51,254 nt of DNA from Pseudogymnoascus verrucosus (taxonomy: Eukaryota): the NCBI GenBank assembly GCA_001662655.1, contig KV460268.1; one strand, given 5' to 3'. The position numbers and the translations under genes were made by a program. Below, one piece after another: positions 8,436 to 42,060 of this stretch; position 1 is the first letter of the stretch, and each line of letters begins with the position of its first letter. The notes beneath the pieces are model-generated. The model was given only the letters and a program-made list of their open reading frames with translations. It searched no databases and was not told the origin of the DNA.

Positions 8436-8487
8436 ATATAAAAATGAAGCTATTGATAATAATATAACGCCCTAACGCCCTAACCCC

Positions 8488-10713: not shown

Positions 10714-10998
10714 TATGAGGATATTTCAGCATTACTACAGGTCTCACGATATACGACGACGTCATGAAATGAAGCCTTAGCAACAGCTTGGCTATTCTTG
10801 GCATGTATCCGGGTATATACCCGGATACACCGGATACTCTACAAATATCGACGGGTAGGTATATACTCGGGTATATACCCGGATACCAAGGGTATATTGG
10901 TATCCGTGCCTAACACTGGATGGTCCTCAATATGCGAAGACGTCAGTTTTTGCGTTTTGGTGAGGGTCATATTAGACTTACATTTTAAGCTAGTTATA

Positions 10999-11181
10999 TA
11001 TGTTCCGGCCCAACCACCAACTATTCTGGTTGGCCAACTAGTCGGTCAGTTGGCCAACTGGCCGGCCGAACCACCAACTTTTAGGTTGGTCGTTCGGCCG
11101 GCCCAACCGCCAACTCAAAGTAGCTTTGCACTATAATTTATATGTAAAGATACTTTGAGTTGGTGGTTGGGCCGGAACATA
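10999..11181. mobile_element. MITE, Tc1/mariner-type (TA-flanked)
   Basis: 22-bp perfect TIR TGTTCCGGCCCAACCACCAACT (11001-11022 / 11158-11179) inside TA runs; internal copies of the CCAAC/GTTGG motif; no ORF. Exact ends are ambiguous within the TA runs. Confidence 0.75.
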
Positions 11182-11284
11182 TATATATGGTCGTACGATT
11201 GGTTTACTAATAACGGAACCTATCTCCCTTGCAACTAAGGGTGGCAGGATGGTTTCTTAGACCGTAATTACACTTTAACTCCTC

Positions 11285-15463: not shown

Positions 15464-15707
15464 GCTTGTTCGTGTGCGGCAAAGATACAGCTCTAGGAAA
15501 AGCGACTTCGAGCTTTGAGCGAGAGAATTGGGGGGTTCAGTTTGTGGTCATGGTGCAAGAATGGATGCGTATGCGGTGGTTGAGGCTGTGCGCTCCTTCG
15601 CAATGCCAAGGTTAGAAGTGCAGCTTAAGTTGGGGTAAGATTTATTAATAGCCACAATCTCTCAAGGGCATCTAGTACCACAGCCCATAACCCACGAACC
15701 CGGAGGA

Positions 15708-15799
15708 TAGGGTGGTAACGATCAAAAAATAAGGGACAAGGGCAGCGAGGCTCACCTACTAGGCTAGAAGTCACCGATTTAACTATTATCCATATGTTT
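15708..15799 (-). mobile_element. Terminal segment of a 5S-targeting element (inverted relative to the copy starting at 24775)
   Basis: AAAATAAGGG..AAGGGCAGCGAGGCTCACCTACTAGGC matches the reverse complement of ~24810-24853 and abuts a half-5S at the same breakpoint. Confidence 0.8.
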
Positions 15800-15862
15800 G
15801 CTTAAGATCACTAGATCAGTAGCTAGGTAGGTAACCACCAGCAAATACCCACTGTTATATGT
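15800..15862 (+). pseudogene. 3' half of a 5S rRNA gene, degenerate
   Basis: 63 nt colinear with the reverse complement of 24712-24774; differences mostly TG>TA; followed by a T-run. Confidence 0.85.
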
Positions 15863-16619
15863 TTTTGCCATTTTATTTTAGCTTGTTTTAGGCTAGAAAT
15901 GTTATAATTATACAAACGTTAAAACGTGGAGAGAGAGAGGGGTATATGAGAGAGATGATATGGGGGTTTGTTCCTGGTGTATGCGTGGCGATTCGCCAGG
16001 GGGATGGAAAGGATAGTTGATCAAAGACCCTTTATTTAACTCCTACTCCTAATCCTATCTACATCCACAACCCGGCCTGCAACGCATACCCATGCCATAC
16101 ACCAACCCCATCCCATCCCATCTCGTGCACAACCCCCCAACCACGCATCAATCCATTCATACACCTCCTAATGCAGCACCACCCCACCACATTCTACACC
16201 CTGCAAAGCCGAAAAAAAAAACACCGACACCGCCAATGTCCTGTATCCCATGTGTGTTCTGTATGCCACATGTATGATATATGCCCCAATGATGCCAGTG
16301 GTGATAGTATACAGTCTACAAGACCCGATCCATCTCTTTCGTCATACCCCCTATCACAAGATAGCACACGGTAGCCGGGGGTAGAGAAGGCCCATACATC
16401 TCCATACCGCTCGCTGTGGAGGAGTGCCTAACCTCAGATGATGGTGATACGCGGGGTCCTAGCACGCGCGCGCCAAAGACGCTGAATATGCGCACAAAGG
16501 GCGGGTACGTGCATATGTGCATGTGTATCCAAAAGCCCTTCTCGTATTGGGACAAGGACGGACGGAGGCAGACGGACGGACAGGACAGGACAGGAAGGGA
16601 CGCAGAACCGCAGAGCAGC

Positions 16620-22460: not shown

Positions 22461-22934
22461 AGGGGAAGTGGGCTGGGTTGGTACAGTCGTAGATGGCTTG
22501 TACGTTGGTAGCAGGGGGGGTTGTGGGATAGCTTCAGAGTGGCTGGATTGTCGGTAATGAAAACATGAAATAGAAGAGAAATTAGGTATAACTAAAGATA
22601 ATAAACTATTAGAAGATACAACTGCCATATATTCTCAAGCTATTTGACTTTCTAGTAAGATCTTGCAATCTCGTATGTCCCAAGTATAAGTTCCTGAGTT
22701 GGGGTCGCACAGAACCCCTCCCCCGCAATCGCGGCTAATAAATAATCCGGCCCCAACATGGAAGCTTCAAGAAACTAAGCACTGAAGCTCTTAAACCCCC
22801 ACCACCACCACAAACAAACACCTCGATCTTCAGCCTCACCAAAAACCACACCTTTCGAAAAACCTACCAATCCTCAACCCACCTCTCACCTCACCTCAAT
22901 TCACCTCCCAGATACCCCCCACCAAACCGCAACC

Positions 22935-24038
22935 ATGTCCAGCCCCCTCGTCTACTTCGACATCTCCATCGGCTCCAAGCCAATGGGCCGCATAATCTTC
23001 ACCCTCTACAACTCCATCGTCCCCCTCACCGCCGCGAACTTCCGCTCCCTCTGCACCGGCGACAAAGGGATCGGCAAATCCGGCAAACCCCTATCCTACG
23101 CCGGCTCCACCTTCCACCGCGTGATCAAGCAATTCATGATCCAAGGCGGCGACTTCACCGCCGGCAACGGCACGGGCGGCGAGTCCATCTACGGCGAGAA
23201 ATTCGCCGACGAGAACTTCGAGATCAAGCACACCAAGCCCTTCTTGCTGTCCATGGCGAACGCGGGGCCCGGGACGAACGGGAGCCAGTTCTTCATCACC
23301 ACGGTCCCGACGCCGCATCTAGATGATAAACATGTCGTCTTCGGCGAGGTCGTGGCGGGGAAGTCGATCGTGAGACAGATTGAGAATCTGCCTACCCAGG
23401 GCTCGGATAAGCCGGCGCAGGACGTCACGATCACGGCGTGTGGGGAGTTGCCGGCGGATTATGAGGTCGGGGATGCGAAGAAGGCGGATGCGACTGGGGA
23501 TGCGTTTGAGGATTTCCCCGAGGATGCGAAGACGGCGGATAAGGAGTTTGAGGCTGCTGAGATTGTGAAGATCGCTTCTGCGCTCAAGGAATACGGGAAC
23601 ACGGCTTTCAAGTCGGGAAACCTCCAGTTGGGCCTCGATAAATACCAGAAGGGACTGCGCTACCTCAACGAGGACCCAGACCTAGACGCCGCCTCCGCTG
23701 ACGACAAGGCTGCCCTCCGCCAACTCCGATTCACCCTCCACTCCAACTCGGCCTTGCTATCTAACAAACTCTCCCTCTTCCCCGACGCCGCCAAGTCCGC
23801 TACTTTCGCTTTGGAGGTCCCCTCTATCACCGACATCGAGAAGGCCAAGGCGCTGTACCGTCGCGCGCTCGCGAGCGTGGGCATGAAGGATGATGAGGCT
23901 GCGCTGAAGGATCTTGAGGCTGCGAAGGCGCTGGTGCCGGGCGATGCAGCGGTGGTGAAGGAGTTGGGTGCTGTGAAGACGAGGGCGGCGGAGCGGGCGA
24001 GGAAGGAGAAGGCGGCTTATGGGAAGTTCTTTGATTAG
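22935..24038 (+). CDS. CPR6: Peptidyl-prolyl cis-trans isomerase D (cyclophilin-40, TPR tail)
   Basis: [32 protein letters not shown] and [10 protein letters not shown] motifs; C-terminal TPRs (KALYRRA) ending YGKFFD. Confidence 0.95.
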
Positions 24039-24711
24039 ATGGTGTGGGGAGTTGGATTGATATGGGTGTTTTATGGGGTTGGAGGGATGGATGGGGGAGT
24101 CTGATTTAGGGATTGAGCGTGGGGGTGATTTTTTTAAAAAGAGAAAAAGAATGGGGGAGATGGATGGTTATGTTGGTGGTGGAGAGAGGGCGTGAGGGAG
24201 CAAGAGGAATAGCTATGACATCTCATGAACGAGAAATGAGGGTAGATAGACGAATGAACATTCCCAATTTTCGAACCCCATGCACAAGCATGTACGTTAA
24301 ACGTGTAACAAGTATTTCATTCCGATGAATCTTCACGACTCCAGGCCGCCACCAGCAGTGTAGCGGGTCAATAATCAACACGGCGGTGTAACTCCACAAC
24401 AAAACAGACACCAAAACACATCATCTCCATCGAACAGTGTTTTTTACATGCCAAAGAATTAGCTCACCATAAACACTGGCGCAAATATACACAAAAGCGA
24501 AATAGCGCAGTCATAGGGTATCTTATTGCACTCCCCCTTTTCCCTCACCCCTTCCCCTCCCCGGCTCACCTACCTCTTACTCCTACCTCGCATACCAAAA
24601 ACCAAATCCCCACACATAACCATTCCATCGCATCACCTCTCTCCATGTTTCAGCGTTTTGGCATTCCCACTTCTAGGCCAAAGGGGCAAAATAAAAAATA
24701 AATGGCAAAAA

Positions 24712-24774
24712 ACATACAACAGTGGGTATTCGCTGGTGGTCACCCACCCAACTACTAATCCACCGATCTCAAGC
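24712..24774 (-). rRNA. 5S rRNA gene, 3' half (interrupted)
   Basis: Reverse complement GCTTGAGATCGGTGGATTAGTAGTTGGGTGGGTGACCACCAGCGAATACCCACTGTTGTATGT followed by a Pol III T-run terminator. Confidence 0.95.
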
Positions 24775-24934
24775 AATCCTCTGGCAGATTGTTAAATAGG
24801 TGCCATCTGGCCTAGTAGGTGAGCCTCGCTGCCCTTACCCTTATTTTGTGATCGCGACTATCTCGACTACATTGACCACCCAAAAGTAGGTCTATTTTTT
24901 ACAACACGTTGTATTACAACAGTAGACGCCTATA

Positions 24935-25024
24935 GGTGAGTGGGTAAGTATGCTAAGGAAGGTGAGTAAGGTGAGCAGGGTGAGCAGGGTGAGCAGGGTA
25001 AGCTAGATGGGCGAGAAAGGTGAG
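24935..25024 (+). repeat. Subterminal GGTGAG(CAG) array, left end
   Basis: About six GGTGAG copies including tandem GGTGAGCAG x3. Confidence 0.8.
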
Positions 25025-26119
25025 TACAGCCAAACTAAGAAAATAGTATAAAGGGCCTGCTACCTGCTTCATATTCTACAGTCTCTATCTGCATTATATA
25101 TTTCCTTTCAAAGTATCTGGTACTATAGGACACCCAGTCTATACTCCTAAGGAGAGAGCTGCTATATCACAGGGGCAAGGTTTTATTATACAGACTACAC
25201 TGAACAGAAGTCTGTTCAGTCGTGCCTTCCTGATTACCAGAACGGGTAATCACCGAAGGCAAGAAAGTTGGGGCTACCGGGGGGTGGCAGGGGGGGCCTT
25301 GGCAATTACTACTACGGGTAATGGTCAGGCCGAAGGTCAGGCTGCTAAAACTGTCTAATGTGCAGGTGCACGGGGTGAGGAGGGAGGGAGGCCGGTGGTG
25401 GATAGATCGTGCACGAGTGTTACGTGAGAATTTAGATGATAGATGTAGATAGATATGTTTTGAAATAGACACAATGAGGTCCATACCCTTTCTGTAGTGT
25501 AACTTACTGATGGCTCTGCAACGAGTAGAAAATGGGAAGCCAAAGCGTTCTGAAGTGGGTGGTGGTGAGTTCATTCAGTGGGTGTTTCTCGCCGCCCGCT
25601 GGTACGAAGGTTAGCTGCGCTGGGGGGAAGAGTGGAGCCACTGGCGAGCTGGTCTACCAGATAATTTCCACGCACGTCAGCATCGGCAATCGATACATCG
25701 ATACGGCCAGTCGCGGGTGGGAAGCTTAAATGGACAACTATGAACAGCCCTATTTAGCAATGCAGATTACAGGGAGGCGTCACTGGGAACACTCAACATC
25801 TGACCTTTCACCTTCCGACTCTCTTCTGTGCATGAGCGGGCATCACATACGACCTTGTGAGGGAAACAATACGCTACAGAGAAAGCTCACGGGGGCGGTG
25901 GGCTCACAGGAGTCGAGCCCTCCAGGGGGTGTTCTCTCAGGAGAGAGAGTCTCTGAGGAGCTTTGTCCACGGAGAAGAAACGAACTCGGAGCATACTCCT
26001 TGGATGTACGAGCGCCCAGGAGGATCCTCCCGGGAGGATCCTCCTGGAGTGCTAGTCGGTTACAACGGTTATTTGCTATTAAATAAATATTTCATCGTTA
26101 TATTCTTCCCAAGTGTAGA

Positions 26120-28640
26120 TTAGGTACATGTTCCAAATGTTCCAGTCTTATCGCAATATGTTACACAATAGTCTGTCGAAGACCCGCAATCTCCGTATAT
26201 CGAACAGCAAGATCCGAAAGTTGACTTGGAACAAGTGTATCCCGTCGAGCCGCCGCAAGTCCCATCTGGGGAAACGTCGATCGTTGACGTGCTTTTTGCG
26301 CTTGACGTCGTCGGGGACGCGCTGCAAGTGCCGAAGACGCCCGTGGTATCACAATATGTCGAGCAGAAATCGGACGAAGAGCCACAGTCCCCGTAGATGG
26401 AGCAACAGGCGCCAAATGTCGACCCGGAGCACGTATACCCAGTCGAGCCCCCGCAAGTACCGTCGGGCGAGACCACGAGCGGGGAGGTACTCTTAATGCT
26501 CGAAGTTGTCGAAGTCGGAGAGCAAGTGCCGAACTGTCCTGTCGTGTCGCAGTACGTGCTGCAGTAATCGGCGCTGCTTCCGCAATCCCCGTATATGGAG
26601 CAGCATCTTCCAAAGGTCGAACCGGCGCAGGTATAGCCAATACTACCGCCACACGTTCCATCTGGGCTCACGACGAATGTCGAGGTCGAGGTCGGGCTAC
26701 TAGCTGTGCCTGTGCCCGTTCCAGACGTCGTGGTCGCTGCAACGGTAGCTGGTGCCGTGTACACGATACTCGAATTGAAGGGAACAGTTGGCAAATCATT
26801 GGGGTCAACATCACACACGCGATCGTACTCGTTGATCCAGTCTGTATCATCATACATATCTTGCGTTGGACCTGTTTCGGTGATGTTGTACTCTTCCTCG
26901 ACGTCGAGACAGAGCGTGTACGTTGCTAAGGCGGAGTATACAGAGGCATTGACTGCAGCAAGGGTAGTTGTTGTTGGTGTGGGCCAGGAGTAGAAGAAAT
27001 GTCTGACATTTGTGAGTACAATCCGTGAAGCATGTCAGAGAAAAAGAAGCTTACGTCGTGGTTCTATTCGCAGTCGCCGTAGCGTTGCGATTGATAGTTG
27101 ACGGCAGACTGGTGTAATTCGCGAGCGATGCAGCCACAGTCGAATACCCAGAGTAAGTGGCGACATTCCCAACTGCTTCAACACACTTTACTAACATGTC
27201 AGTAATTTTCTTTAATTTGGTCCAGGAAGGAGGCTCACATAGGAGTTTCCAAGCCATAGGTTCCCACAATCTGGAGCAATCTGAGGATTTAAGAAGTAGA
27301 ATGTTGCGTTGGTGATGCCGAATGTGGCTTCAATGGATCCGCAGGTATCGTTGGCAATAATGGTGTACCAGTAACCACAATCCACATTTGTGGTGCCGAC
27401 AGCATTGGTTGGAACGGCACTGGAGACAGTCAGTGACCGCAGTGGGGGGTTAGAGAGATACGATTGAATTGTATAGAAGAGCAAGGGACAAGCTCAAACT
27501 CTCAGCGGGGTGTAGAGAATATCCCCCACTACATCACATGGCATGAACTTACACTGCAGTTGCGGCAGGCGGGAGGTAGAGTGGCATCGGAGAACCAGGA
27601 GGGCTTGACAAAAGTTAGTGCACTGAAACATGAATCTAGAAGTCTGATTTCTAACCTGATGCAGATGTACGTGCCAACAAGAGCAGCTAGATTGGAACAT
27701 TGAGAGTTGATATTTGAGTTCCACGACGCCAAGTCAGCATTGGTGATCCCTGACGAAAAGGAGGAAATGATAGATGTGCAGGTATCGTTCGTCTTGACCA
27801 GATAGACGTCGCAAGTCGTTGGCAGACACAGTTTCTCGCCTGTACTCAAATAAGAGCAACCCTGATCCAGCCCGTTCAGGGAGGTCAGAGAACCAGTTGA
27901 CACATTTTGAGAAGCAGAAATGTCGATACAGGAGTCATTTGCCAAGACTGTGTACAGCGCAACACTCGGGTCCGTCTTGTTACAGCGGTCTCCAGAGGTC
28001 ACTGTGGGCGTTGCAGTCGAAGTGCTCGAGCTGGATGTCGCCGTGTAGGTAGCCGAGTAACCAGTGGCTGAGCAGCTCGATACTTGCGACTCAAATTCCG
28101 AGTTGCTGATTAGAGCCTGGCCCCATTCTGAGTTGACGATGCTTTCCATATAAGTCAGGTAGCATGTGCTGCAACTGACGCCGGTCGAAGAATTGGCGAG
28201 CGCCTCCTGGAAGTAAGTATTGCAGTACTCGCCAGAGGAAGGATCAGTCAGGCATGTGGTGCTTTGTCGCCATTGCATTTCCCTTCCTAGGTCCGCTGCC
28301 GTTTGGATGGTTCCGGAGATGTTGTATGTGGCCGTTGCCCCGCATACAGAATCAACGTTGGCAACATAAGCAGAAAGAGCAGTGGTGCAGTTATTTGCGC
28401 ATATAAATCCCAGAGCGCTCGAAGACCATGTTCTGCCCAAGAGGTCAAAGTCAGTATATACTTCTACCGGCTAGGATTGGAACATTCTCACGTTGTGTCA
28501 GTTACTGCCGATCTAAGGTTAGCATAGCAGCTGACATCTGCCGTAAGAGCTGAGAGGCACGAGGCTGAAGCAGAGATATTGGCAAATGCTGTGCTTGAAG
28601 AAGTGTATATGTACAGCAAGTCGACCGATGGGGTAGACAT
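26120..28640 (-). CDS. LysM + hevein (CBM18) chitin-binding protein
   Basis: Three LysM-like units (YTVLANDSC, YLVKTNDTC, YTIIANDTC) and three C-terminal VSPDGTCGGS.GYTC...CCSIYGDCG repeats; multiple introns; start at 28640 inferred from GCCATG context. Confidence 0.88.
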
Positions 28641-29557
28641 GGCGCCGAAAAGGAATGTGGTGATATGGTTGTAAAGACAGTTGGAGGGGGATTAGAAGCC
28701 TCTTGGGTCAAAAAAGGCTCCTCGAGGACTCTCCGTCGACCTCTGAACTGGGGGATGGGGTTGGCACGACCTCGAAGTCGGTTGGGCATAGGGAAGATTG
28801 AGGAGCACCATGATCGTCTTAGTGAAGATGCAAGGTTCGTTGCTGAAATCTCGATTCCCATCTCCGAAAAATCTGAAATGCAGGTACAGCACTGTAAATC
28901 GAATAAGCTCACGCAGGTGCTCACATGAAAAATTCAGAAAACCTTGTCTCCATGTAGCTACAAGCAGAATCCTTCAGAATCCTTTGAACGGAAGCAATGC
29001 CAAGCTGAGCCAAGTCTCGATCTAAAGGCTTATCCAGATCCATCTCGGCGTATTATCCTTGACAATAGCGGGTCGTGCCGCCGTGCACGTCAGCCACTCA
29101 CGATGTTCCCCTGAGAGGCTCGATTCCAAATAAGCTTACCTAGGCCACACATCTCCACTGGAATGTAACCTTACATCCACGCGGGTTCTGGCAATTATGG
29201 GTCTGACTTCAATTGCAGATCTGCCGGAGTTCGCACCTTTACAGCAAGTGTCCCTCAACCCCCCACATCACCAATACCAATGTCAAACTTGCACTTTGAC
29301 CTTCATTTTCAAAGCTAGGTACAGAACTGTGTCTCATTTCCGCTCTTGCAAATTCTTCATGAAATGCCCCAGTATCACAACTAAGCTTCAGCTCTACGCG
29401 TAGGATTTCAAAGGATTCCAGCTTATAGCTCAGCAAATCAGTTGCCCCTCAGTCTGTCTTTGCCGTTTGCTCCTGATCCTAATGGTAGCTATGTCTTGTC
29501 TTCCTCACCTCCAAACTTCTTGAAAGTATACCGTCTTTACCTCATTGCCGCAGCACA

Positions 29558-32500
29558 ATGGCGTTGCTTCCAACAAAAGCATCTTGGCCTGAACGGCTTT
29601 TTACACTCTTTATACTTCTTTCTGATTTACACATTACATCTCTAGTTTCTGCTCAGACAATCACTTGCAGCAAGGCAAGTCCTTGTGTAAACAATGCTTG
29701 CTGCAGTGTCGCTGTTGGGTCTACTGAAGGAGTAAGTTTGCCCATATGGAAGATGATATCCTCAAAGAGAAATCTCACAAGGGCGTTTGCTGACCGTTCC
29801 TCCAGATCTGCGGATATGGACCTTTCTGCAACACTACTACAACCGCTACTTGTGTTAGTAACTGCGATGCAAAGGCCGAATGCGGTAAATATGCAAAGAT
29901 ACCTGGAGCGACATGTCCTCTTTCTACCTGTTGTTCAGAATGGGGTTTCTGGTAAGTCGTTGTCCATCACTGAAATTCAAGTATTTTGCATTGAGAGCTC
30001 TCGGGCGCTGCTCTTTGGACAGCGATTGAGCCTGCATGCTTTCCTGTAGCATCCTAAATCTACAGCGCTAATTCATTAAATAGCGGTACAACGACTGAAT
30101 TTTGCGCGGATCTCTGCCAAAATAACTGCTTTGAGCCTACTGAACCATCCTGTACCTCAAATGATGTCCTGAAGAAAGTGATAGGCTATTACGAAAGTTG
30201 GTCGTCAGATCGGGCATGTGACGGCTGGGGACCAAGCGACATCTCTGCCAACGGACTCACACATGTTTTTTACTCATTTGCCTTGTTCGAAGAATATGAT
30301 TCCGACTGGAACGTGTATATTCCAGCACTGGATCAAGCTCAAACCGAGGCCGAAATGCTCAAACCTTTTATGGCTCTTAAACAGAAGAACCCTGGTCTAA
30401 GTACTGTTATTTCAGTTGGTGGATGGTCAGTAAATAACGTGCCCAATGTTCCTGTGGTGCTCTTTACTAAATCTAGTCACAGGTCATTCAATGATCCACC
30501 AACAGCAGGCTATTGGTCTACGATGTCGTCGACCGCTGCTGGTAGAAACTCTTTCGCTAAGAATCTCCTTGCATTTATGGTACTCTATGGTTTCGATGGT
30601 GTCGATTTGGACTGGGAATACCCTGGGGCCTCTGATCGTGGAGGAGACACGACGTTATGGGTAGACAGCGATAACTACATAGCCCTCATCAGGGAAATTC
30701 GCATGGTTTTCGATGCTACGGGAACAGCATACACGATTTCATTCACTACGCCTGCCAGCTACTGGTATCTCCAGACATTCCGGGTCAACGAAATGCTCTC
30801 AGCCGGTGCTGATTGGACCATGATGATGACTTACGATCTACACGGTGTTTGGGACGGCGATGACCCATATATCGGTAAAATAATCGGTTCTCATACTAAC
30901 TTGACAGAGATCAAAGTTGGCCTAGACTTGCTCTGGCGAACTAATGTAGATCCTTCCCAGGTTCTCATGGGCATAGGATTCTATGGCCGTTCTTTTACTT
31001 TGAGTGACATTGGCTGCCAAGATCCCGGATGTCCTTTCGATTCAGCTGGTGTTCCAGGTGTATGTACTGCCACTGCTGGAATTCTTTCTTATAAAGGTAG
31101 CGTTTGTTCTGCTCTGTTCGCTGCCAAATCTGTACTAACAAGAACAGAAATCACTGCGATCGTCACTGCTGGAGAAGGTACACCCGTGTGGAATGAAGAG
31201 GCAGCTGTCAATTATCTGACCTTTGCCGACAATCAGTAAGACTTTCCAATTATAAACTTGCGACTCTAAGTCAAACTTCCAAACAGAACAACTGACATCA
31301 TTTTCTATAGATGGGTTTCATACGACAATAATGTTACCTTTAAACAGAAGGTTGATTACGCAAACCAAATCTGTCTTGGAGGGGTCGGTATCTGGGCTAT
31401 AGACTTGGATACCTATGACTGGCAGGCACTGAGTGCTTTGACAGGCAAGGATATAAATGGCGGCTCCCTTCTAACCAGCGGTGGGGACCCTACCGAGCTT
31501 GCTTCAGCTTATAACGCTTACACCGGAGCTGATTGCTATGTCTCTGGATGCGTTGACTGGAACACAGGGTCGTGCAAGGCCGGGTACAGCGTGCTAGACT
31601 ATGTGCACTCTGGATCCATGGGTGTGATCGAAGATCCTGACAAGAATTTGTGCCGCAGAGGTGATGTGTCTGTTGAAGAGTCTACAGATTCACAATATCG
31701 TTTGATCTGTTGTCCGACAGATGCGATGCCAGTCAGCTGTTCATGGGAAGGAGCAGGAGCAGGAGTAGGATTTGCATTGTTCCCGCAATTCTGCAAGGGT
31801 GGCGGCTCTGGCTTCTGTGGCGCCGGAAAGTTTGAATTGATTGCAGACTCCTATACCGAAAGGACAGGAAGTACTCCGTGCATCTTGAACAAGCGATCTT
31901 TGTGCTGCGCAACGGATCCGGAGCTGGAACTCTGTTCTTGGACAGCTTGTGGTGACTCCTGTCTAGAGACACAGTATAAGAACCCCAACACTTCTGTGTA
32001 TGGCGGATCAAGTAAGTGTTGCCCCGAACAAAACACCAAATCTGACTAATGATGTTTCTCAGATCTCAATCAAGATTCTGAACTCTGCGCCGATGGCGCG
32101 AATCCAGCCGGCCCCTCTTCATTCTGCTGTCCCAGTAAAGGCACGCACACTCCTGATCCATGCCAATACTATCCTGCTAACTAGTTATCCAGATACGTAT
32201 ACTGGCTGTGCCTGGTATGGTGACGACTACTGCACGAAAAGCTGTCCGAGCGACAAGATTCTCATTACACAAAGATCGGAAATTGAGGACCTCCAAATTG
32301 AGCAAGGTTTGCCAGGTGGCTACGATGAATGTGTCACTGGATACCTGAAATACTGCTGCGATCCTCCTACAGCGACAACAGACTGGCCTGTCAGTCCGAC
32401 AGATTTGTTTGAGTACCCTGATACAACACACGTGAGCTACGAGTATGTCAAAGAGGATTCATCATATGACGACTGTATGTCTATATTAACTCCTCGTATT

Positions 32501-35500
32501 TTTTCTCATACGAATTACTGACTGTACTATAGATGATAGAGAAGAAGATGGCCCATTCGCCTTCGTGATGATTGACGGAGATACAGCCGCTTACAGCGAG
32601 TCACTGGTGGACCAGTGGGGCTTCCTCGATGATGACTTGAACCTATCAAAGAGAAAAATAAAGAAGCGCGACATGTTCACTAAACAAAACGACACATTTG
32701 ATAATGTTGTTGAGACATACACTATTAAGTGTCTTAATCTTGCCGGCTGTGAGGGTTTGTTTGAGAAAGGGGCTTCAAATACCATTGTCAAGCTGCCCGA
32801 CTCCATAGGTGCAGGACCTTATGCCAGGATTATAAGTCTGGAGCCTATCGGATCGACGAAGAGGTCAAGCAATATAGTGCCACGATCAGTAGGCGATACC
32901 TACAACTTGGTCGTGGATTATGATCTCGCAGGTGCCGCTGTGGAACAGAAGGGCGATGTTAACTTCAGAATCGATTACTCCAATCTCGTGGACTACTGGG
33001 CCGACGTCACAGACACTCCTGCGAAGAACAGAAAACGATGGTTTGGAGCCTTCAAGGCCTGGTTGGCCAAAGTCACGACCATGGTCAAATCGGATACGGG
33101 ATTCCTTCCCTTAGAGTACGAAGAGAACATCAAACTTTTCCATTTCGCCAAAACCTGCCCAAAGACCAATCTCAAAACGACCCTCGATTTGGACGCCAAT
33201 ATACATATGGGATTGTATGCCCAATACGCCTACTACTTTGAGGGCTCAATTTTGCCGACGCCAACTTTGATTGCATCTTACGGTTACTTTTCAGTGTCAC
33301 CCGCCGCCGCCGTACGTCGTCAGACTCCATGCTTTATTTTATCTTTCTAACCATCTTACTAACTACTGGCAGATCTTGATGACTCTTAGAGGCGAAGCCA
33401 TCATCCAAACGAACTCAGATGTTGTCAACATCTTAAGTGGAATTACCCTCCCAGGACTTTCTATCAAAGGACTCATCAGCATTGGTCCAGAGTTTGATTT
33501 GACAGGTTCTATGGATGCTTCATTGCAGGTTTCTGGCGAACTTAACGCTGGTGTTTCTGTCGCATGGCCCAAGGCCGAAGTATTTTTCCCCCAAGACAGT
33601 GATGGAACTGGGGCAACTATACCCCCAGGGACTTTGGACGATCCAAATGATCCTGACAAGCAGCAGACTTTTTCAGTAGTACCCACCTTTGACGCAAGCA
33701 TCACGGCTGTTGGAAATCTTGCACGCAAGTTATAGCACATCTTTCCTCACAGGAATTTACTGACAGTGTATTAGTGACTCTTACCCCTCAAGTCAAATTC
33801 GGAATATCTGTCTTAGGCGACGCTCTCATGAGCGGATATGTCACAGCAGGCGTAGCTAATACCATTACATTAGGACTCTCTGCTGGTGCCAGTGTTAGCT
33901 CAACCACTGGAGCTACTGCTGAGTTTTGTTATTGGGCAGACTATGTCTATTCTGTCTTCCTCTCTTCTGATGTCTCGTATGTTGGCCTCTCTTAACTCTA
34001 CGTTGGGCGTGAACTGATAAAAGTTACCTAGATTCGCCAATGGACTTGCTTACTGGGGTAACTCTATAGAGTTGGCATCGCCTGAAGATCCCCTGGTTCT
34101 CATTGACAAGACATGCGTTGACTACTCCTCAACCCCAGCAGACAAGCGAAAGCGAGATGATGCAAACCTTGTCCCTCTCACTACAGGAACGCCATGCTTT
34201 GGGGGTTTGATATCGTGCGAGGACACCGTTGACAACACAACTTGTGCAGTTGGAGGTCCTTCTTCCAAGCGAGACACGTCAACTTGTTACCTGCCTCCAG
34301 CACTTTTCTATAACTGCGCCTTCTTTCAACCTGGGCGTGTTGTCAACGACAATGAGAATACTCGAGCTGGTGGTGCATACGAGACATTCATTAGTAAGTG
34401 GCGCAACCTTATCTCAACTTATACCCTGCTGCGACACGTCTGCTAACATTTGACGTAACAGGTATTTGCCAAAATGTTCGAGGATATCTCCAGGACAACA
34501 ATAACGGTCAGACAATTGGATCCAACTGGATGCAGCTGACTTATCTTCCCGGCGGAGGGACCAATCGAAACGACGCCTGTAAGGATGTGTCTTCGGTCTG
34601 TGCCTTCACAAAGTCGTATCTGTGGCCGACAGCTGTTTTTGAGGCAGCGTTGACAGCCAAAAAGGATGACAAGGCCTACATGAACATGGCAGGGTACTCT
34701 GATTCAATTTCTTGCGATGAATTTCCCTTCAATGCTTCCGAAGAAGGTGGTTCTGGGGCGAACGCAGCATGTGTTACAAATGACCAGCAATTTTACCAGG
34801 GCCAGATCAATAATCTTGTTTCTAACGTCTATGATCTTGAGGAGGATAGCTTATGGTCACCTCGTGCTCCTAAACCAAAGTGGAACGGTGGCAAAAGACT
34901 CTACACCATAAATCTGTTCGATGCATCTACCAATGGAAACGATCTCTCTTCACCTTACGCTGGTACATGGAAATCGTCTGCAAATACTCCAAGCGGCGGT
35001 CTTACTCAGGTTGTGGGAGGTATCAATCTACAAGGCAATCCGCAATATCAATTAGGCGTTAACGGAGACGTGCAAAACGGTATTTGTATGACGATGCCAC
35101 GAACGATGACCCTTGCTGCTACTCAGAAGTTTTACAAATTGAAGGTACAGAAATGCTTTATCACCTTTGAAACGCCTGAGGATTTAACAAGGAGGGGCTT
35201 GGATCCTCAAGATCCACAGAACTGGCAGATCAAATGTGTGTACAAAGTTCCCCCCAAAGCATTATTGCTGTCAACCCTCACAAATAAATTCACACTAACA
35301 CCTTGGCAGCTGTCCAACTTGAAGATGATGACGAAGAGCTAATAAAGACGGAAAATGATGGCTTTGAGATGGATATCATAGAAGAGATTACTAAGGAGAT
35401 TGAGGTCTTAGATATTGCGAAAAAGTATCCAGCCGAAGCAGTGATTACACCAAGCCCGAGATTGGGACCAGGTCATGTACATGGACGTAGACATTATTAG
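29558..35500 (+). CDS. Subgroup C (killer-toxin-alpha-like) GH18 chitinase with CBM18 and C-terminal NucA/NucB-like domain
   Basis: Signal-peptide-like start; hevein CPLSTCCSEWGFCG; intact catalytic DGVDLDWEYP; MTYDLHGVWD; Cys-rich linker; KR|WFG; C-terminal SCDEFPFNASEEGG; about 11 GT-AG introns join the listed ORFs. Confidence 0.88.
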
Positions 35501-36126
35501 GCTGATAAGTAATTTTGGGGAACGAATTTTCTGAATTAAGTAGCTAAGTAACTATAACAATGTACTTATATTCTTAGATGAGTTCACTGCATTTAGTTAG
35601 TTGTAGGCGTAGTTTCAATGATCTTGTATGTCGAAATAACGAAATGATATCTGGGACCCCCCAGTTGCTGGCGATTCCGCAGTCACTGTCGATTCCGCAA
35701 TCACTGTTGACTATAGCTATTATATTAGCGACTATTACCGTTTATACCATAGGAAGTCACGAAAAGAGGCAGAATGAATACACAGTATCATGATCAGAAA
35801 ATTGTGAAATGCGTAGAAGACCATCCTCTCATTATGGTGAGTCTTCCAACTATATACGTAGCCCTGACACGACGCTGTGATAGACTACGCGCGTTAACCC
35901 GTACATTCAGTAAACTGAGAATGATCATATTCATCCCCTTTCCCCTCAGCCTCGAGGGCAAGATATCCCGGAGCATTCTGCTCGATCAGTGCTGGCCATT
36001 CATCAGGGCCCTGTTCAAGGTGTCCTGTAGCTTTCACATCTGCAAATATCTCTAGAATTGGCTTCGAGATATCGAGACTAAAACTCAGTTAGCACATTCT
36101 AGACTAGCAATTGGTTTGCTCCAAAC

Positions 36127-36993
36127 TTACCGCTGTCCATATTCCCCCTCATCGACATCGGCATGGACCCCATCAAACCCAGCATTTCCTCGTATCTCTG
36201 CCAACCCTTTCGCCAACCCATAGTGCATGTTATACAGGTAATTTAACTCCAGAACAGATGGCCGCATGTTCAACACCACATCTCCGTTGGATTCGATGTT
36301 TACAATCAAAAGCATGCCGTCCTCCAAAGACCGTTGGTCGGCGAAAACCCATTGATTCAAACCCTTAAAAGTAACTGTAGCATGGACAGTCATATACATC
36401 CAATTGAAATCAGCATTCTCTACAAATCCTGCCTTCATGAAATCCTTAGGCTCTACACCAGCAGTCGCTGAATGCGGCGATGCCTCAAGAACGCCGACCT
36501 CACAGATTCCATCGTTGGAATCGTAGAAGTCGTAGGAAAGAATCCGAAGCTTGGTCCACAGGGCTCGATTGCGAGGTGTATCGAGAGGCGCGATACAAGT
36601 GTACCATGATAAGCTGGATACATCGCCCCTTGGGAAGTACTGCTTCACAGCGCGGTTATTCCAGACCGGTGGCGATTCTAAAGCACGTGCGTGGAATTGA
36701 TCTCGCAAAGTCTGCGGAGCTTGAATCCATTCAGAGACGAGCGCTCGTCTTTGATTGGCTTCATATTCCTGGCTTGCTTCTCCGGATGGTTTGGGTATCC
36801 ATTTTTCCTACGTCGATGTTAGCATAGTAGCCTCGGAGACCGTACAGTGGAAACAATTGATCGAGGGGCAAGATTTCACCTTCACAAATAGTTTCCAGCC
36901 ATTAGTCAATTCGTCGACTTTGTCATCGGCTGTAGGAACTCCGTCGAATTTGACGTACGATGGAATGCCGCCTGGCCAGTATGAGAATGGCAT
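36127..36993 (-). CDS. Uncharacterised protein with WPGGIP motif and HMG-box-like N-terminal segment; start uncertain
   Basis: Intron 36808-36879 joins YWPGGIP...TNGWKLFVK to EKWIP...RRALVSEWIQAPQTLRDQFHARA and the 193-aa ORF; frame stays open upstream to ~37170; no signal peptide seen. Confidence 0.7.
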
Positions 36994-37649
36994 ATTGAAG
37001 TGCCAAGAAGGGTGAGGACGGAGGACGGCTGCGAAGTCAAAATTGCGAAGTGGAGGTGGGTAATAGTAGTGCGAGTTGAGCAAGGATTCAAGCGAGGTTT
37101 CGGCGCTGATCCCTAAGTCATGAGGGCGAATAAATATATTTGAAAGAGTGTTCTGACTACGAGGTTTGATAAAAAGTCAAGGAGAATGGCCAGTCCACCG
37201 AATTTCGTAAGGTAACAGTGTGTTGTAATTGCTCTTTCGCCTGCCGTAACTCCTACTGTACCGAACATGTCACAGTACCCGTTGGACGGGCAGCCAAGTT
37301 TACTTAACATGTCCGCTGAAGCTTCGCAACTACGAACGCCCACTACTTCGCGGAATATAATGGCCAATAGTATATCATTTCAGCTGCTTGACCGGTTAGA
37401 CTATTAACCATAAATGGGGTTGCAATGGTTGCAAGGAGCTGGAAGGACTGAGAAGTTTGAATATCGTTTGTTTGGTTTTAGAGGTTTGGTTCCGTCGCTA
37501 AATCACGTAAACCTCTATATTCTGAATGATCCCAAAAATAGGAGCAAAGGCGCCCTTAATATGGTACGTAAGCTCAGACGGCTAAACTTCGGTGTTGATA
37601 CGAAAATGACGCCAAATTGACGCCAAACTGACACGAAAATGTTGCTTCG

Positions 37650-37701
37650 CCTCACTCACCCTGCTCACCCCACTCACCCTGCTCACCCCCAGGCTCACCC
37701 T
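37650..37701 (-). repeat. Subterminal CTCACC array, right end (inverted versus 24935-25024)
   Basis: CTCACCCTGCTCACCCCACTCACCCTGCTCACC...GCTCACCC. Confidence 0.8.
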
Positions 37702-37775
37702 TCAGGCGGCAAGGGGCCGCGATTCCACGCTATGCCTATTGGCACGATTGAGACTATTAGCAAGAGGATACGCAG

Positions 37776-37833
37776 GCTTGTGTATGGCAGAGCGGACGGG
37801 ATGCCCAATTCTCTTGAGTCTATGGTCGTATGT
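37776..37833 (-). rRNA. 5S rRNA gene, 5' half (interrupted)
   Basis: Reverse complement ACATACGACCATAGACTCAAGAGAATTGGGCATCCCGTCCGCTCTGCCATACACAAGC; its CTCAAG pairs with CTTGAG of the 3' half. Confidence 0.95.
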
Positions 37834-37903
37834 GACTGTTACTCTCATATCGAGCTACAACTAACTACTACCTTGCGGGCAGGAAACCCACAAACGAAGC
37901 AAA

Positions 37904-37966
37904 ACAAACAACAGTGAGTATTCGCTAGTGGTCCACCACCCAACTACTAATCCACCAGCCTCAAGT
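37904..37966 (-). pseudogene. Second 5S rRNA 3' half, degenerate
   Basis: ACAAACAACAGTGAGTATTCGCTAGTGGTCCACCACCCAACTACTAATCCACCAGCCTCAAG is colinear with 24712-24774 and breaks at the same position. Confidence 0.85.
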
Positions 37967-38275
37967 TAGCCTGTAGATAATAGTTAAATTGGTGCTCTCC
38001 AGCCTAGTGGGAAAGCCTAGCCGCCCTTGCCACCATTATGTGATGGCGACCACCTTAACATTCAAAAAATTGGTGATGTATTTCAGACGCGCTCTACCGC
38101 GACATTGGATGCCTACAGGTGAGCAAGGTGAGCGGGGTGAGATAAATGGGCGATGAAGGTGGGTACTGTTGAGTTAAGAAAATGGTATAAAGGGCTAGTT
38201 CCCCGCTTTCATATTTCACGGTCCTCTGTATGCAACTTTGTTTATTTTCTTTTATCTGCTACCATGACTGGAAAT
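37967..38275 (+). mobile_element. Terminal ~300 bp of a related, older 5S-targeting element (far end not found)
   Basis: Colinear similarity to 24775-25130 (GTTAAAT..GGTGC, GCCTAGT, GCCTA.AGGTGAG, TAAGAAAAT.GTATAAAGGGC, TTCATATT). Confidence 0.8.
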
Positions 38276-38680
38276 GCCCTGCAACATACCGAGCTGGACA
38301 GACAGTATAGCTTGGCTACCTAGGTATAGAGTCTACGTGTATCAAGGCAATTCGGCGCCAAATTCCATGATCTTCCAAATGTTTACTACGTCTCTATTCC
38401 GCGGGGATATCTTTTTAAGGCGATGGTCAGGTGGTGATTTTAACAATGTGTGGTTTGCCACTCACTCACCTAACCCGAATTCAATATACAGAGTGTTTCG
38501 TCTGCTCTAAGAGAGTTACTCCACGGAGATACTGGAGTGGTTCGGTCATAAGTGAATTGTGACGTCACCATCTCCCCTCTCTTTATAACTCACACACTAT
38601 CTATATTACATTCTTCCTGTCGAGTTACCTACCATCTAACCAGCATCCATGTGTTACTAAATAGATATCAAGAAAACAGC

Positions 38681-39040
38681 ATGCCATCAAACAAGCACTC
38701 CATCGACGTCGCCCATGTCAAAGATGGACACCCGCGCAGTGGGCAAGCTGTGCTGGTGGACCGGATCTGGCCGCGAGGCCAGCGCAAAGACGAGGCACCA
38801 TGGGACGAGTGGCTCAAGGCAGTAGCACCGACAACAGAATTACGCAAGTGGTATGGGCACGACCCAGACAAGCATGATGAGTTCGTCCGCCGTTATAGCA
38901 TTGAGCTTCAAGGTGACGAGCCAGCGGAGGCCTTTGAGCATTTGCGAAAGTTGCACCAGAGCGGAGACTTGACTCTGATGACCGCCACTAAGGACCTGGA
39001 GACAAGCCAGGCTAAGGTCCTTGCAGAAATGCTAGCTTAG
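38681..39040 (+). CDS. DUF488/YeaO-family protein (bacterial-type)
   Basis: VLVDRIWPRG..K......EWLKAVAPTTELRKWYGHDP..HDEFVRRY signature; intronless, 119 aa. Confidence 0.9.
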   Translation: MPSNKHSIDVAHVKDGHPRSGQAVLVDRIWPRGQRKDEAPWDEWLKAVAPTTELRKWYGHDPDKHDEFVRRYSIELQGDEPAEAFEHLRKLHQSGDLTLMTATKDLETSQAKVLAEMLA

Positions 39041-40559
39041 ATTGGCGGCTCAAGAGCAGTGAGAGGGTAGAGCGTGGAGCACTTGTGGCATCTTTCCTTT
39101 CTGAGCAAGTATCGTACCGTGTACATGCTTATTGAGAAGGGTAAGTTTCCCGAATCTCCACAAGCTAAGAACAGAATCCTGACCTATTCACCGTCTAGTC
39201 CATATAGCGCAAGCACTACTCTACCATGGAGCACATTGACGGCTGATGTATTATCAACTAGATAAAAATAATTGCTAGGGGTCTTAGCAAACTACACCTT
39301 TCAGCTCAATCCACTTCGTGCAATGTGGCATTGACTATGAGTAATTTTCTTAGTGTCACGAACTCTATCAAATATATATATTTTTCTTATTTTAGATAAC
39401 TTTGCAGCATGTAATTTCCTGACCGAGGGAGCACAAACCTCCTTTCCCTATTTGGAAATCAAATTTCCAGTAACGCTCGTGGACCTACGAACTCGGCTCG
39501 TTCAAAATCAATCCCAGTTATTCATGGTAGATCCAAGTAGATGAGACTGATCTGGACTATCTTGCGCCTTTACGGTCTGCGAGTAAAAATTGGCAGGATC
39601 GAATCTCTCAAAGCGCTCCCACAAGTCGTAAAAAAAACAAGCGCGATCTGGAGCACAGGACGAACTAGAACGTCCCATCCAACTTACCTCGCCTTGTTAC
39701 ATTTGATAGGTGTGGCTCTGGTTCTGCAATAACAACTGTGCTTAGCCGTTTGATTTCATACAAATCTTAGAAGAGGAAGAAAGATTGTAATCCTCTTGCG
39801 ACTAGGTGTAAGACACAGTATAGAGGCGATGGATTGCGTGGGGCTATCTAGACCTGGCGTTACAGTAGGTCCACTGTTTGTGGCTATTAGGTGATCCGCA
39901 TTATCTAATAGTGCCTTAGGACATGGACATTATTAACATGAGGAGATGGATTATTCAATTTAGGGGCCAAGTCTAACGCGAAAAAAAAATGTGTGCTACA
40001 TGACGCAGCGTTACAGGGGCGTGGTGAAGAGTTAGAAGAGGCACAGCGCGAGAGCGGGGATGGAGAAATATTGTTCTATACTGAAATTTAACTGAATATT
40101 CTTAATTTAAACACCTTGCACCTTATTAATGATTGCTAGCTGCAAATATTTGCTCCCCTGTTGACTGTGTTGAGAACATGCCTAGCAACTGTCATACTAG
40201 GGACAGACGCCAACTGTGGTGGTCAGTTAACGTTCATGTGCTTAAGGCTGTAGTTATCCAGTCGCGTACACCTGTTAGCAGCCTCAATGTAGCTGATCAG
40301 TTGTCTGTCAAACGACAATTGTAGCTGAGAGAGAAGAAGTATCCCATAGAGCAGGACAAGCTGCATGTAGAAGTAAGAGGCAGTCCTGCGCGTACATAAG
40401 CCGTGAATAGAGTCGTTAATGACAGGGCATAGTTCAGATATCTGCTATGAACCACGCCGTCCTCATAGCAAACAGAGGACGGAGGAGGCCATCCTAGTTA
40501 TCTATAGACATTGGCAATTTTGATATATCTGATATGGTAGCTTACGGCATTACGTCTAG

Positions 40560-42060
40560 TGAACTTTAGGCGATGTGCTTTTAAAGATCATATGAAATTT
40601 AGGTAGATGATGATATAGTAGCTATTAAGATAGAATATAGGTAGATGATGATATAGAAGCTCTTAGGGGCTAGGAGATTAACACTATAGTTATAACGTCT
40701 ATGTTTTTACTATCTTAGATTAAAAGCATAAACAGCTAAACATTATAGAACTACCTATGCTTTAAGTCTTTAAATAAGGAATGTATTAGGTTGTTTATAA
40801 TTCCCTTAAGAACATATATAACTACCTCTTTCTTCTAACACTTTAAATTTTATAGCTTAGTTATTTTACACTACTAGGGACTATATATGTAGCTTTAATA
40901 TTATTACTAATAGGATCTAGGATAAATGCTATATAGTAGTTAGGGTAGATATAGGCTCTTAGCCCTAGTGTACTATTATCCTTAGCACCTACTATAATAG
41001 TAGCTATATAGAAAGCATCTATAGCATCCTTATCTATATTAAACTTATTAGTAGATATAAGGGATTATAATGCTAATTCTAGCTTACCTAGTGTACTAAA
41101 AGTAATATATACTATAGATTTAGCATTACTAATAGTAATCTACTACTTAGGACACTAGCTACTAAAGCTAGTTATACTATTAGGGAAACTTACTAGCTAC
41201 TTAAATTTTAAAGGCTTTAGTGTCTATATATAGAAGTTAACAACTATATAGTACTTAACTATACTAACTTTAATAAGAGTGTAAGTAATAACTATTATAG
41301 GTAGAAAGATACTATTTTCTTAGTATAAGCTAGTAATTAAGTGTTATAGAATAAAAGATGCCTACTTAAAGCTATAGTAGAGAGCTTACTTATATATTAT
41401 AGGAGTAGTATCTTAATAGCTCTATTACCTCTATAAGGATACCTCTTTACTTAGGTTAGTTATAGTTATTATAAGGTAATAAGTAGACTTAGTACTATTA
41501 TAGTTTATTTATAACTATAAGCCTTAGGTACATAGTATAAGGAAGCCTTAGGTAAATAGAGAGTTAGCTAAGTTAGAGGGGTTTTAGGTATTTAAGGAAA
41601 TAGGAATAGAGGGTTCCCCCTTTATCTTTTTTATATCCTTTATAGTAGACCTATAGGATTATACTATAACCTATCTAACTTATACTCCTATATGCTATTT
41701 ATTATAAGTAGTGTCCTATGTCCTTATATAGTATAAGTAGCTATATAACCTATAAGAGATGTTTCTTATGTATTTCTTTCTATATCTCCTTTTCCTATAT
41801 CCTACCTAACCTACTATATACTCTTATATACAAACAAGCTCTACTTTAACTACTAAGAATATGACGTTAAACACTTAGGGAAGTAGCCCTAAGTTGCCTT
41901 ATTACTTACACTTTATAAGAATTCCTTAAAAGGCATTATTGTATCTATTATAAGACTATTATCTAAAGAAAGTATATTTTAGTATAGGTTAGACAAGAGT
42001 ATGGATCTTTAGAAGGTATTTAATTATGTAATTTAGAGTAGTAGTGCCCTTTTAGGCTTA
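40560..42060. other. Heavily RIP-mutated AT-rich tract
   Basis: Strong TpA excess with CpA/TpG depletion by eye; no ORFs. Confidence 0.85.
40861..41295 (-). pseudogene. RIP-destroyed glyoxalase/bleomycin-resistance (VOC) family gene
   Basis: Reads DAIDAFYIATIIVGAKDNSTLGLRAYIYPNYYIAFILDPISNNIKA; reversing transitions gives a VOC-type motif such as VDAF.AAA.AAGAKDNGAPG.R...HPNYYAAFVLDP.GNNIEA; ATG>ATA at 41295; several TAG stops. Confidence 0.8.

Follow-up and report, generated by a model that had tools for sequence, protein, structure and literature searches.

A 13-kb element within a 5S rRNA gene of Pseudogymnoascus verrucosus carries a LysM gene and a subgroup-C-type chitinase gene with a NucA/NucB-like C-terminal domain

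Subgroup C chitinases are induced during combat between fungi. By published definition, they measure 150–250 kDa as deduced from the open reading frame (ORF) and carry CBM18 and/or LysM modules (PMC4392113). One branch, subgroup C-II, has LysM (CBM50) domains inside the chitinase and comprises the carriers of zymocin-like toxins: in clusters described from Pezizomycotina, genes of C-II chitinases adjoin separate small genes for tRNA-cutting γ-toxins, often together with LysM-only genes and sometimes with an immunity gene (Heneghan, Salzberg & Wolfe, bioRxiv 10.1101/2024.10.25.620242). Its authors found no such cluster in Leotiomycetes, and later papers of the same group keep the focus on C-II. 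Here, we describe a locus of Pseudogymnoascus verrucosus (contig KV460268.1 of assembly GCA_001662655.1) in which an element of about 13 kb interrupts a 5S rRNA gene and carries three genes: one for a large GH18 chitinase with a NucA/NucB-like C-terminal domain, one for a LysM/CBM18 protein, and a third gene of no known family. The window is the whole stretch of DNA that was analysed (51,254 bp), and all positions refer to it.

Several described systems come close to this locus in one respect or another. Zymocin, encoded by plasmid pGKL1 of Kluyveromyces lactis, and the zymocin-like clusters resemble it in combining a large secreted GH18 chitinase, chitin-binding modules, and an association with a nuclease, and the clusters also in having a LysM-only gene, introns, and non-syntenic, easily moved loci. 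In those systems, however, the nuclease is a separate small secreted γ subunit that cuts tRNA, whereas a DNase-type domain is here fused to the chitinase; likewise, C-II chitinases carry LysM domains, whereas the present chitinase has none and no γ-like gene lies in the cargo (bioRxiv 10.1101/2024.10.25.620242). A single polypeptide of similar domain make-up is ORF2p of the Debaryomyces hansenii plasmid pDH5A, in which a signal peptide and ChtBD1 are combined with GH18 and a NucA/NucB fragment, and Kex2 motifs precede the DNase part. It differs in its size (1226 aa), in being encoded without introns on a cytoplasmic yeast plasmid, and in its proposed protectors, which are ORFs of 120–122 aa rather than a 324-aa protein; a killer role was proposed, and that study states that none of the plasmid proteins had been shown to have DNase activity (PMC8472843). 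In Trichoderma atroviride, the LysM gene tal6 adjoins the subgroup C chitinase gene tac6 and is co-regulated with it, which is the same arrangement of a chitinase gene beside a LysM protein gene; Tal6 has seven LysMs as opposed to the three LysMs and three CBM18 repeats found here, and the part of the source at hand mentions no nuclease domain in Tac6 (PMC4392113).

The fourth system, NucB of Bacillus, is a free-standing enzyme with a mature form of 110 aa, whereas about 40 core residues match here within a C-terminal region of ~390 aa; in the enzyme of B. licheniformis, activity requires both Asp93 and Glu94, of the DRDE motif, as well as Asn117, of the DNRG motif (PMC5758888), and the last of these is Gln in the fungal protein. 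Finally, Starships belonging to the families Enterprise, Arwing, and Voyager insert in 5S rDNA (PMC11162782). The element resembles them as a cargo-carrying insertion inside a 5S rRNA gene of a Pezizomycotina genome that is present or absent among relatives. It is unlike them in having no DUF3435 captain in the element or the 51-kb window, a length of only 13 kb, and imperfect terminal inverted repeats of ~55 bp accompanied by inverted 9-mer arrays. It is, therefore, Starship-like in behaviour and not a member, because the captain gene is absent.

The cassette belongs to a known kind of pair, a killer-toxin-like GH18 chitinase of subgroup C beside a LysM/CBM18 gene. That pairing and the GH18–NucA/NucB fusion on killer-type plasmids of Debaryomyces are already known; the new aspects are the fused DNase-type tip in filamentous fungi and a carrier element without a captain. 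All gene models were built by hand from splice signals and then compared with homologs, and the element was compared with sequence contigs from four related runs (X3, X6, X7, and X22). The coordinates of all features are collected in Table 1.

Table 1. Features of the element, its cargo, and its surroundings in the window
Feature	Position	Strand or orientation	Basis or remark
Inserted element, 13,003 bp	24773..37775		boundaries ± 2 bp; contigs with intact 5S skip 13,003 bp
5S rRNA gene, 3' part, 62 nt	24711..24772	-	Rfam 5S_rRNA 29.4 bits, below gathering score 38
5S rRNA gene, 5' part, 58 nt	37776..37833	-	joined to 3' part in run contigs
Left arm, multi-copy, no recognisable gene	24773..26006		depth; cargo contig starts at 26007
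Subterminal array of GGTGAGCAG-type 9-mers	24961..25002	+	inverted relative to 37651-37688
LysM (x3) + CBM18/hevein (x3) protein gene	26120..28640	-	5 introns in model, 723 aa
Divergent intergenic (promoter) region, 917 bp	28641..29557		start codons at 28640 (-) and 29558 (+)
Subgroup-C-type GH18 chitinase gene with C-terminal NucA/NucB-like domain	29558..35500	+	13 introns, 1692 aa
GH18 catalytic domain	30175..31410	+	PF00704, E 7.7e-45; DGVDLDWE at 30595-30618
Cys-containing linker exon ahead of nuclease region	34033..34392	+	dibasic sites KRKR and SKR
Nuclease-domain exon	34464..35235	+	CDEFPF at 34713-34730; Gln (codon 34788) at metal-binding Asn position of NucB
Third gene, 324 aa	35894..36993	-	2 introns; belongs to no known family; N-terminus not signal-like; colinear with P0003
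Right arm, multi-copy	37257..37775		holds inverted 9-mer array 37651-37688; X3 and X6 cargo contigs end at 37257
Second junction of 5S 3' part and element left end	37901..38265	same orientation	74-78% identical to 24709-25126
Third junction of 5S 3' part and element left end	15719..15873	inverted	83% identical over 156 nt

The chitinase, read from the ATG at 29558 to the stop codon at 35498–35500, is colinear from end to end with four full-length homologs (retrieved proteins P0015, P0016, P0014, and P0019) and 52% identical to the first of these over 1709 columns. Two introns are unusual, one with a GTCAGT donor and one of GC-AG type, and the residues at both junctions are conserved in the homologs; the GC-AG intron (33725–33774, donor GCAAGT) is required for the reading frame, and the junction that it leaves, GNLALTLTP, is identical in them. 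An end without the last intron, at a stop codon near 35340, was considered and rejected because the C-termini of the homologs fit the spliced form. The N-terminus is signal-like as judged by eye (LFTLFILLS...VSA, followed by Q) and gives way to Cys-rich chitin-binding modules. Pfam matches Chitin_bind_1 there only in part (25.9 bits) because an intron splits the CBM18 domain, and PF00187 is present at the aligned site in the homologs. The GH18 domain keeps the DxxDxDxE catalytic motif as DGVDLDWE. Some 800 residues that follow it are conserved among the homologs and match no Pfam family except DUF7223, for which the match is sub-threshold. Next comes the linker, which has at least one KR or RR in all seven aligned sequences, then the nuclease region, and the protein ends in an acidic tail.

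In size (1692 aa), in its CBM18 module, and in its GH18 motif, the protein agrees with the definition of subgroup C given above. Pfam found LysM in none of its exons and in none of the full-length homologs. Because they have no LysM, the nuclease-tipped chitinases would be placed as C-I-like rather than C-II by the published domain criterion.

The initial annotation, made from the letters of the window alone, had called a nuclease at the chitinase's C-terminus, and a NucA/NucB-like domain does stand there: PF14040 (DNase_NucA_NucB) matches the nuclease exon with an E-value of 4.7e-9 and 37.1 bits, above the cut-off of 23.8. The core, CDEFPFNASEEGGSGA...TNDQQ, aligns to RDEWPMAMCEEGGKGA...SSDQR of the 110-aa ‘Nuclease’ of PDB entry 9fj7 in a weak match (E 0.65), in which CDEFPF...EEGG...DQQ pairs with RDEWPM..EEGG..DQR. 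The Asp–Glu pair of NucB is kept in this same weak match, CDE of CDEFPF standing opposite RDE of 9fj7, and 9fj7, too, has DQR at the position of Asn117. Among 60 retrieved proteins (P0014–P0073), 46 have the motif C[DE]E[FLYW]P, in nearly all cases as CDEFP, and many of the remaining 14 are fragments that end short of the site. Because the Asp–Glu pair and the CDEFP-type motif are kept, the C-terminal domain is likely, if unproven, to be a metal-dependent nuclease. Further comparisons, among them those of structure for the ββα metal-finger fold of the NucA/NucB family, spoke neither for nor against this. The AlphaFold model of the domain reached a predicted local distance difference test (pLDDT) score of 59.7, too poor for fold comparison; with it, Foldseek returned no PDB match at E ≤ 0.001 and a wide structure comparison gave a best Z of 2.1. 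A phmmer search of the whole nuclease exon against PDB found nothing, and a profile search was swamped by GH18 matches.

Searches with the nuclease exon retrieved 37 representatives at E ≤ 0.001 among 1.84 billion and, by word index, six long proteins. PF14040 is present in seven of the eight long GH18 homologs that were scanned, from Lasiodiplodia, Seiridium, Truncatella, another Pseudogymnoascus, Aspergillus desertorum, A. ruber, and Penicillium verhagenii; these fusions span Eurotiomycetes, Xylariales, Botryosphaeriales, and Pseudogymnoascus. From this recurrence, the nuclease tip is judged a stable part of a chitinase subfamily and no swapped-in module. The architecture is easily overlooked. 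What the public annotation calls is no more than 273 aa from the nuclease region (VF21_06789, 95% identical to the nuclease exon), and a search of proteins of 512–2000 aa found no full-length protein for this chitinase. The gene being split in public annotation, proteome surveys would miss the GH18–nuclease architecture. Our literature search found no description of the fusion in filamentous fungi, although the supplementary tables of bioRxiv 10.1101/2024.10.25.620242 could list such genes.

The partner gene lies on the opposite strand, with its ATG at 28640 and its stop at 26120. Its Pfam matches are to LysM in two exons (E 4.5e-13, over two stretches, for one; E 0.0027 for the other) and to Chitin_bind_1 in the final one (E 5.3e-7), and the translation shows three hevein-like repeats. 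With several LysM motifs and no catalytic domain, the product fits the criterion for a LysM effector-type protein; its N-terminus, MSTPSVDLLYIY..., is weakly hydrophobic as judged by eye. The initial annotation had described a LysM/hevein gene head-to-head with a large GH18 chitinase gene about 920 bp away, and the models agree closely with this (917 bp between the start codons), as they do with the layout published for subgroup C chitinase and LysM genes. Together with the third gene, the two fill the single-copy cargo (26007–37257), leaving gaps of 917 bp and 393 bp. No gene for a small secreted γ-toxin (ribonuclease) was found in the cargo. The further claim that these three genes are the only recognisable ones in the element also holds: of the eight other ORFs of at least 80 aa that were scanned in the arms, none matched a Pfam family.

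From these features we arrive at a reading to which we give about even credence: the cassette would encode a DNase weapon that docks on chitin and is processed by Kex2, together with its LysM partner and a passenger gene, all borne on a 5S-targeting element that has no recombinase. Going by its domains, the chitinase would be secreted and would dock through CBM18 and GH18 on the chitin of other fungi, competitors being the presumed target given the biology of subgroup C chitinases. A Kex2-type protease would cut at the dibasic sites, as their presence in every aligned sequence and the parallel with the yeast plasmid suggest, and the released C-terminal part would, to judge from its motif, cleave DNA and constitute the damaging moiety. 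The protein would thus be a single-chain, DNA-targeting analogue of zymocin, and the LysM/CBM18 protein would be its co-regulated chitin-binding partner. The third gene would be a passenger of the element and no dedicated antidote, the producer being protected mainly by the nuclease staying in the secretory pathway. That the nuclease enters the target cell is a tentative part of this reading, held with rather less than even confidence; that it acts outside cells we consider somewhat less probable still.

The strongest competitor of the weapon reading is that the protein is an extracellular bifunctional hydrolase, in which a chitin-anchored GH18 domain and a DNase digest wall chitin and extracellular DNA of matrix, necromass, or biofilms with no need of immunity, be it for nutrition or for loosening the walls of competitors. 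NucB is itself a secreted enzyme that degrades extracellular DNA (PMC5758888), the signal-like N-terminus and the chitin-binding modules point outside the cell, and the finding reported below that no immunity gene is linked elsewhere is what this explanation would lead one to expect. Against it, the ~800 conserved residues between GH18 and nuclease and the conserved dibasic sites exceed the needs of a tether, and relatives of this chitinase group are toxin carriers (bioRxiv 10.1101/2024.10.25.620242). We regard this explanation as somewhat unlikely.

The third gene is convergent to the chitinase gene and ends 393 bp from the stop codon of the latter. The start at the ATG at 36993 given by the initial annotation was correct, while the end given there (36127) lies near a splice donor and the real stop codon is at 35894–35896; the introns are 36879–36808 and 36130–36078. 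The protein is 74% identical to P0003 over 322 residues, and full-length homologs begin with MPFS..WPGGIP and end with APGYLA.E..G...YDHS. An upstream exon was considered and dismissed because seven of the nine homologs that include the N-terminal region begin at MPFS; among the homologs, P0005 has no N-terminal region and P0013 starts differently. For the main exon, identity to VF21_06788, a protein of Pseudogymnoascus sp. 05NY08 annotated next to VF21_06789, is 100%. No hydrophobic N-terminus is seen by eye, as had been noted at the outset.

In 5.8 billion clustered proteins, the family of the third gene has 13 members (P0001–P0013). The other named species are six: Coleophoma crateriformis, Talaromyces rugulosus, Phialocephala subalpina (two copies), Pseudogymnoascus sp. 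VKM F-4520, Lachnellula occidentalis, and Acephala macrosclerotiorum. A protein from a Leotiomycete is 74% identical to TRUGW13939_04852 of T. rugulosus. With this distribution, it is a patchy orphan family that possibly moved horizontally. None of the 13 members matched a Pfam family up to E 10, the best E-value in a PDB profile search was at least 0.17, and the protein Atlas returned just unnamed clusters of Ascomycota, with a lead to DUF6924 that was below the bar and not used. The AlphaFold model (pLDDT 40.3) was not taken into a fold search. None of the searches of Pfam, PDB, and Atlas linked the third gene by family, fold, or motif to any immunity protein.

In bacterial polymorphic toxin systems, a nuclease forms the C-terminal end of a long secreted carrier and a small gene lies alongside, and the initial annotation had likened the cassette to such a unit, with the third gene as its candidate immunity gene. 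The LysM protein and the chitinase would then deliver, the nuclease tip would kill, and the third gene would give cytosolic immunity against re-imported or mis-sorted nuclease, all within one selfish unit. The location of the third gene, convergent and close to the chitinase gene in the same single-copy cargo, speaks for this arrangement, as do its N-terminus, which is not signal-like, and its patchy occurrence with high identity between a Leotiomycete and T. rugulosus. Run X7 retains the nuclease half of the chitinase together with the third gene at ~99% identity, and on the yeast killer plasmids the chitinase–NucA/NucB ORF is accompanied by small cytoplasmic ORFs for which a protective role has been proposed (PMC8472843).

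The comparison across genomes, a check set beforehand, came out differently. The six other named species with third-gene homologs and the 11 with nuclease-domain homologs do not overlap, and when the two families are compared by the length of the longest contig, the pair of this genome (188,761 bp) is the only coincidence; outside this genome, no co-occurrence was found as far as it could be tested. The one metagenomic locus that a scan returned (L001, with a homolog 52–54% identical) places the third gene among housekeeping genes, those for RPA, NUDIX, SYO1-like, and Lon protease proteins, and tblastn found no match to the chitinase, the LysM gene, or the nuclease exon within 10 kb on either side. 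In X22, a homolog ~81% identical lies on a 6.2-kb contig on which nothing else resembles the window at 80% identity or more. The initial annotation had itself named absence of linkage between the third-gene family and nuclease-tipped chitinases as a refutation of the proposed unit, and the result, as far as the comparison reaches, is therefore counted against an antidote role, as is the lack of any family, fold, or motif link to immunity proteins. The likeness to polymorphic toxins fits poorly as well: the tip is conserved in its subfamily and not variable, and the neighbouring gene is unlinked elsewhere. A complex prediction for the nuclease exon and the third-gene protein gave a score of 0.03, which says nothing for or against binding. 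We regard the three-part toxin–antidote unit as improbable.

That the three genes are the cargo of a 5S-targeting element, as first proposed from the sequence, is upheld by the insertion site, the ends, and the copy numbers. The two 5S parts join exactly into one 120-nt gene, with the insertion between its positions 58 and 59. Rfam at the gathering score gave no match in the window, the 5S part appearing below threshold only. The joint from 24772 to 37776 is seen in all four runs, in two contigs of X3, three of X6, four of X7, and three of X22; these contigs represent intact 5S genes elsewhere in the related genomes and fix the boundaries of the element. Where a Starship would have a short direct repeat of its target, only 2 bp fit both sides of the joint. 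The termini form an imperfect inverted repeat of ~55 bp (39 of 58 columns) with a score of 33, compared with 14.6 ± 3.0 in shuffles, none of 500 of which reached it. The 9-mer arrays near the two ends are inverted relative to each other (inverted repeats I1–I4; 33 nt, 91% complementary). The arms have about 2–20 times the single-copy depth in all four runs (~4–10 times at 24871–24946 in the left arm and 2–20 times at 37613 in the right arm), while the cargo is single copy, and one 11,238-bp contig of X6 covers exactly 26007–37257. All three copies of the left end in the window abut the identical position of 5S.

No recombinase or transposase family was detected with Pfam in arm ORFs of at least 80 aa or in the scanned ORFs of the window, and no DUF3435 tyrosine-recombinase captain among ORFs of at least 130 aa in the window (of 51, the 16 that do not lie in overlapping frames were scanned). 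Most simply, then, the element is a non-autonomous relative of some 5S-targeting element.

In relatives, the cargo and its surroundings differ in their degree of conservation. X3 and X6 have the whole cargo at ~99.5% and ~98.5% identity, respectively, and the left flank (22481–24735) at ~94–95%. For X7, comparison over 5,848 bp of the cargo (31231–37053) gives 35 mismatches with 12 gaps (~99%), and comparison over 1,967 bp of the flank at 22479–24445, where a cyclophilin gene lies, gives 207 mismatches with 51 gaps (~89%). The cargo is far more alike between relatives than the flank, a pattern that favours a recent spread of the cargo by horizontal transfer or introgression. In X22, the flanks have diverged, the arms are multi-copy, and most of the cargo is missing (depth 0–2 at 26572–35447), the third-gene end (35448–37349) being covered by the divergent homolog only.

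Two observations on individual runs may be added. Of the chitinase, X7 keeps the C-terminal two thirds, and it also keeps the third gene; 26572–30375 is uncovered, and in the contig the 242 bases upstream of 31231, a position near intron 4, are unlike the window. The N-terminal half of the chitinase is deleted or replaced in this run. Between X6 and the window at 21500–40500, changes from G to A number 177 and those from C to T 69, a strand-biased excess of transitions reminiscent of repeat-induced point mutation (RIP).

An ordinary resident chitinase–LysM locus, inherited vertically and merely surrounded by 5S fragments and repeats from decayed, unrelated insertions, is very improbable: the X3 and X6 contigs do share the left flank and end within the same 5S part (24735), and no recombinase gene was found in the element, but the exact fit of the 5S parts across 13,003 bp, terminal inverted repeats beyond chance, multi-copy ends beside a single-copy cargo, the ends without most of the cargo in X22, and the contrast between cargo and flank in X7 all argue for insertion.

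Several points nevertheless weigh against the weapon reading. The PF14040 match spans only profile positions 42–82 of 100, and the position of Asn117 in NucB is occupied by Gln (DQQ), which is conserved across the fungal family and of unproven role in function. The nuclease activity is predicted from sequence, toxicity, expression, and cell entry are presumed, and for the chitinase as for the LysM protein the signal peptide was called by eye. Since NucB acts outside cells, a purely extracellular role fits most of the data equally well. As to the third gene, the searches that found no linkage rely on shared words and public gene models and miss distant or badly annotated genes; names were looked up for 10 of the 37 HMMER matches only, ‘shorter’ proteins were outside the searches, and a single foreign locus (that of L001) was read directly. 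As to the element, the contrast in identity could reflect introgression of the region rather than transposition, and contigs from the other strains stop at the multi-copy termini, so that their copies may lie in this 5S gene or elsewhere.

A broader proposal, which we put forward as doubtful, is that LysM-less subgroup C chitinases with a NucB-like end are single-chain, DNA-cutting counterparts of zymocin, one of which, with its LysM partner, is here being passed between species of Pseudogymnoascus on a small captain-less element. One polypeptide would then unite chitin docking, a large translocation region, release by Kex2, and a DNase warhead, and the principle that a chitinase carries a nuclease would reach beyond C-II chitinases and their RNase clusters, into another lineage of chitinases and into Leotiomycetes; the 324-aa orphan protein may even be a novel protector confined to this lineage. 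C-II chitinases adjoin genes of tRNA-cutting toxins (bioRxiv 10.1101/2024.10.25.620242); a conserved, DNase-like tip that is probably released by Kex2 would be a concrete answer to what the huge C-terminal halves of the other, non-C-II branch do. At least four fungal orders have the fusion, as do killer-type plasmids of yeasts. The locus would also be a compact case for how antagonism genes move, with a 13-kb element in a 5S gene that has no recombinase of its own and a cargo ~99% identical where the flanks are ~10% different. The negative result on the third gene spares effort on an attractive but unsupported antidote model.

The window holds two further junctions of a 5S 3' part with a left end of the element. 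The second lies 67 bp from the interrupted 5S gene, and the window has no matching right end or 5S 5' part for it. Rightwards of this junction, DNA that includes a DUF488 ORF (38552–39040) is present in X3 (99.7%) and X22 and has zero depth in X6 and X7 at 38618–39251; this DNA thus also differs among strains. The third junction lies 170 bp from an ORF of 1420 aa (11285–15547) with NACHT/NPHP3_N and ankyrin domains, of NLR type, and suggests that an element of this family inserted there as well, with a different cargo, and extends towards the AT-rich stretch at 7–11 kb. Matches to microRNA models at a palindrome at 11034–11191 were sub-threshold and taken as chance. Two AT-rich blocks, 41001–42000 (GC 0.275) and 7001–11000 (GC 0.37–0.42), contain many short inverted repeats and are probably RIP-degraded repeats.

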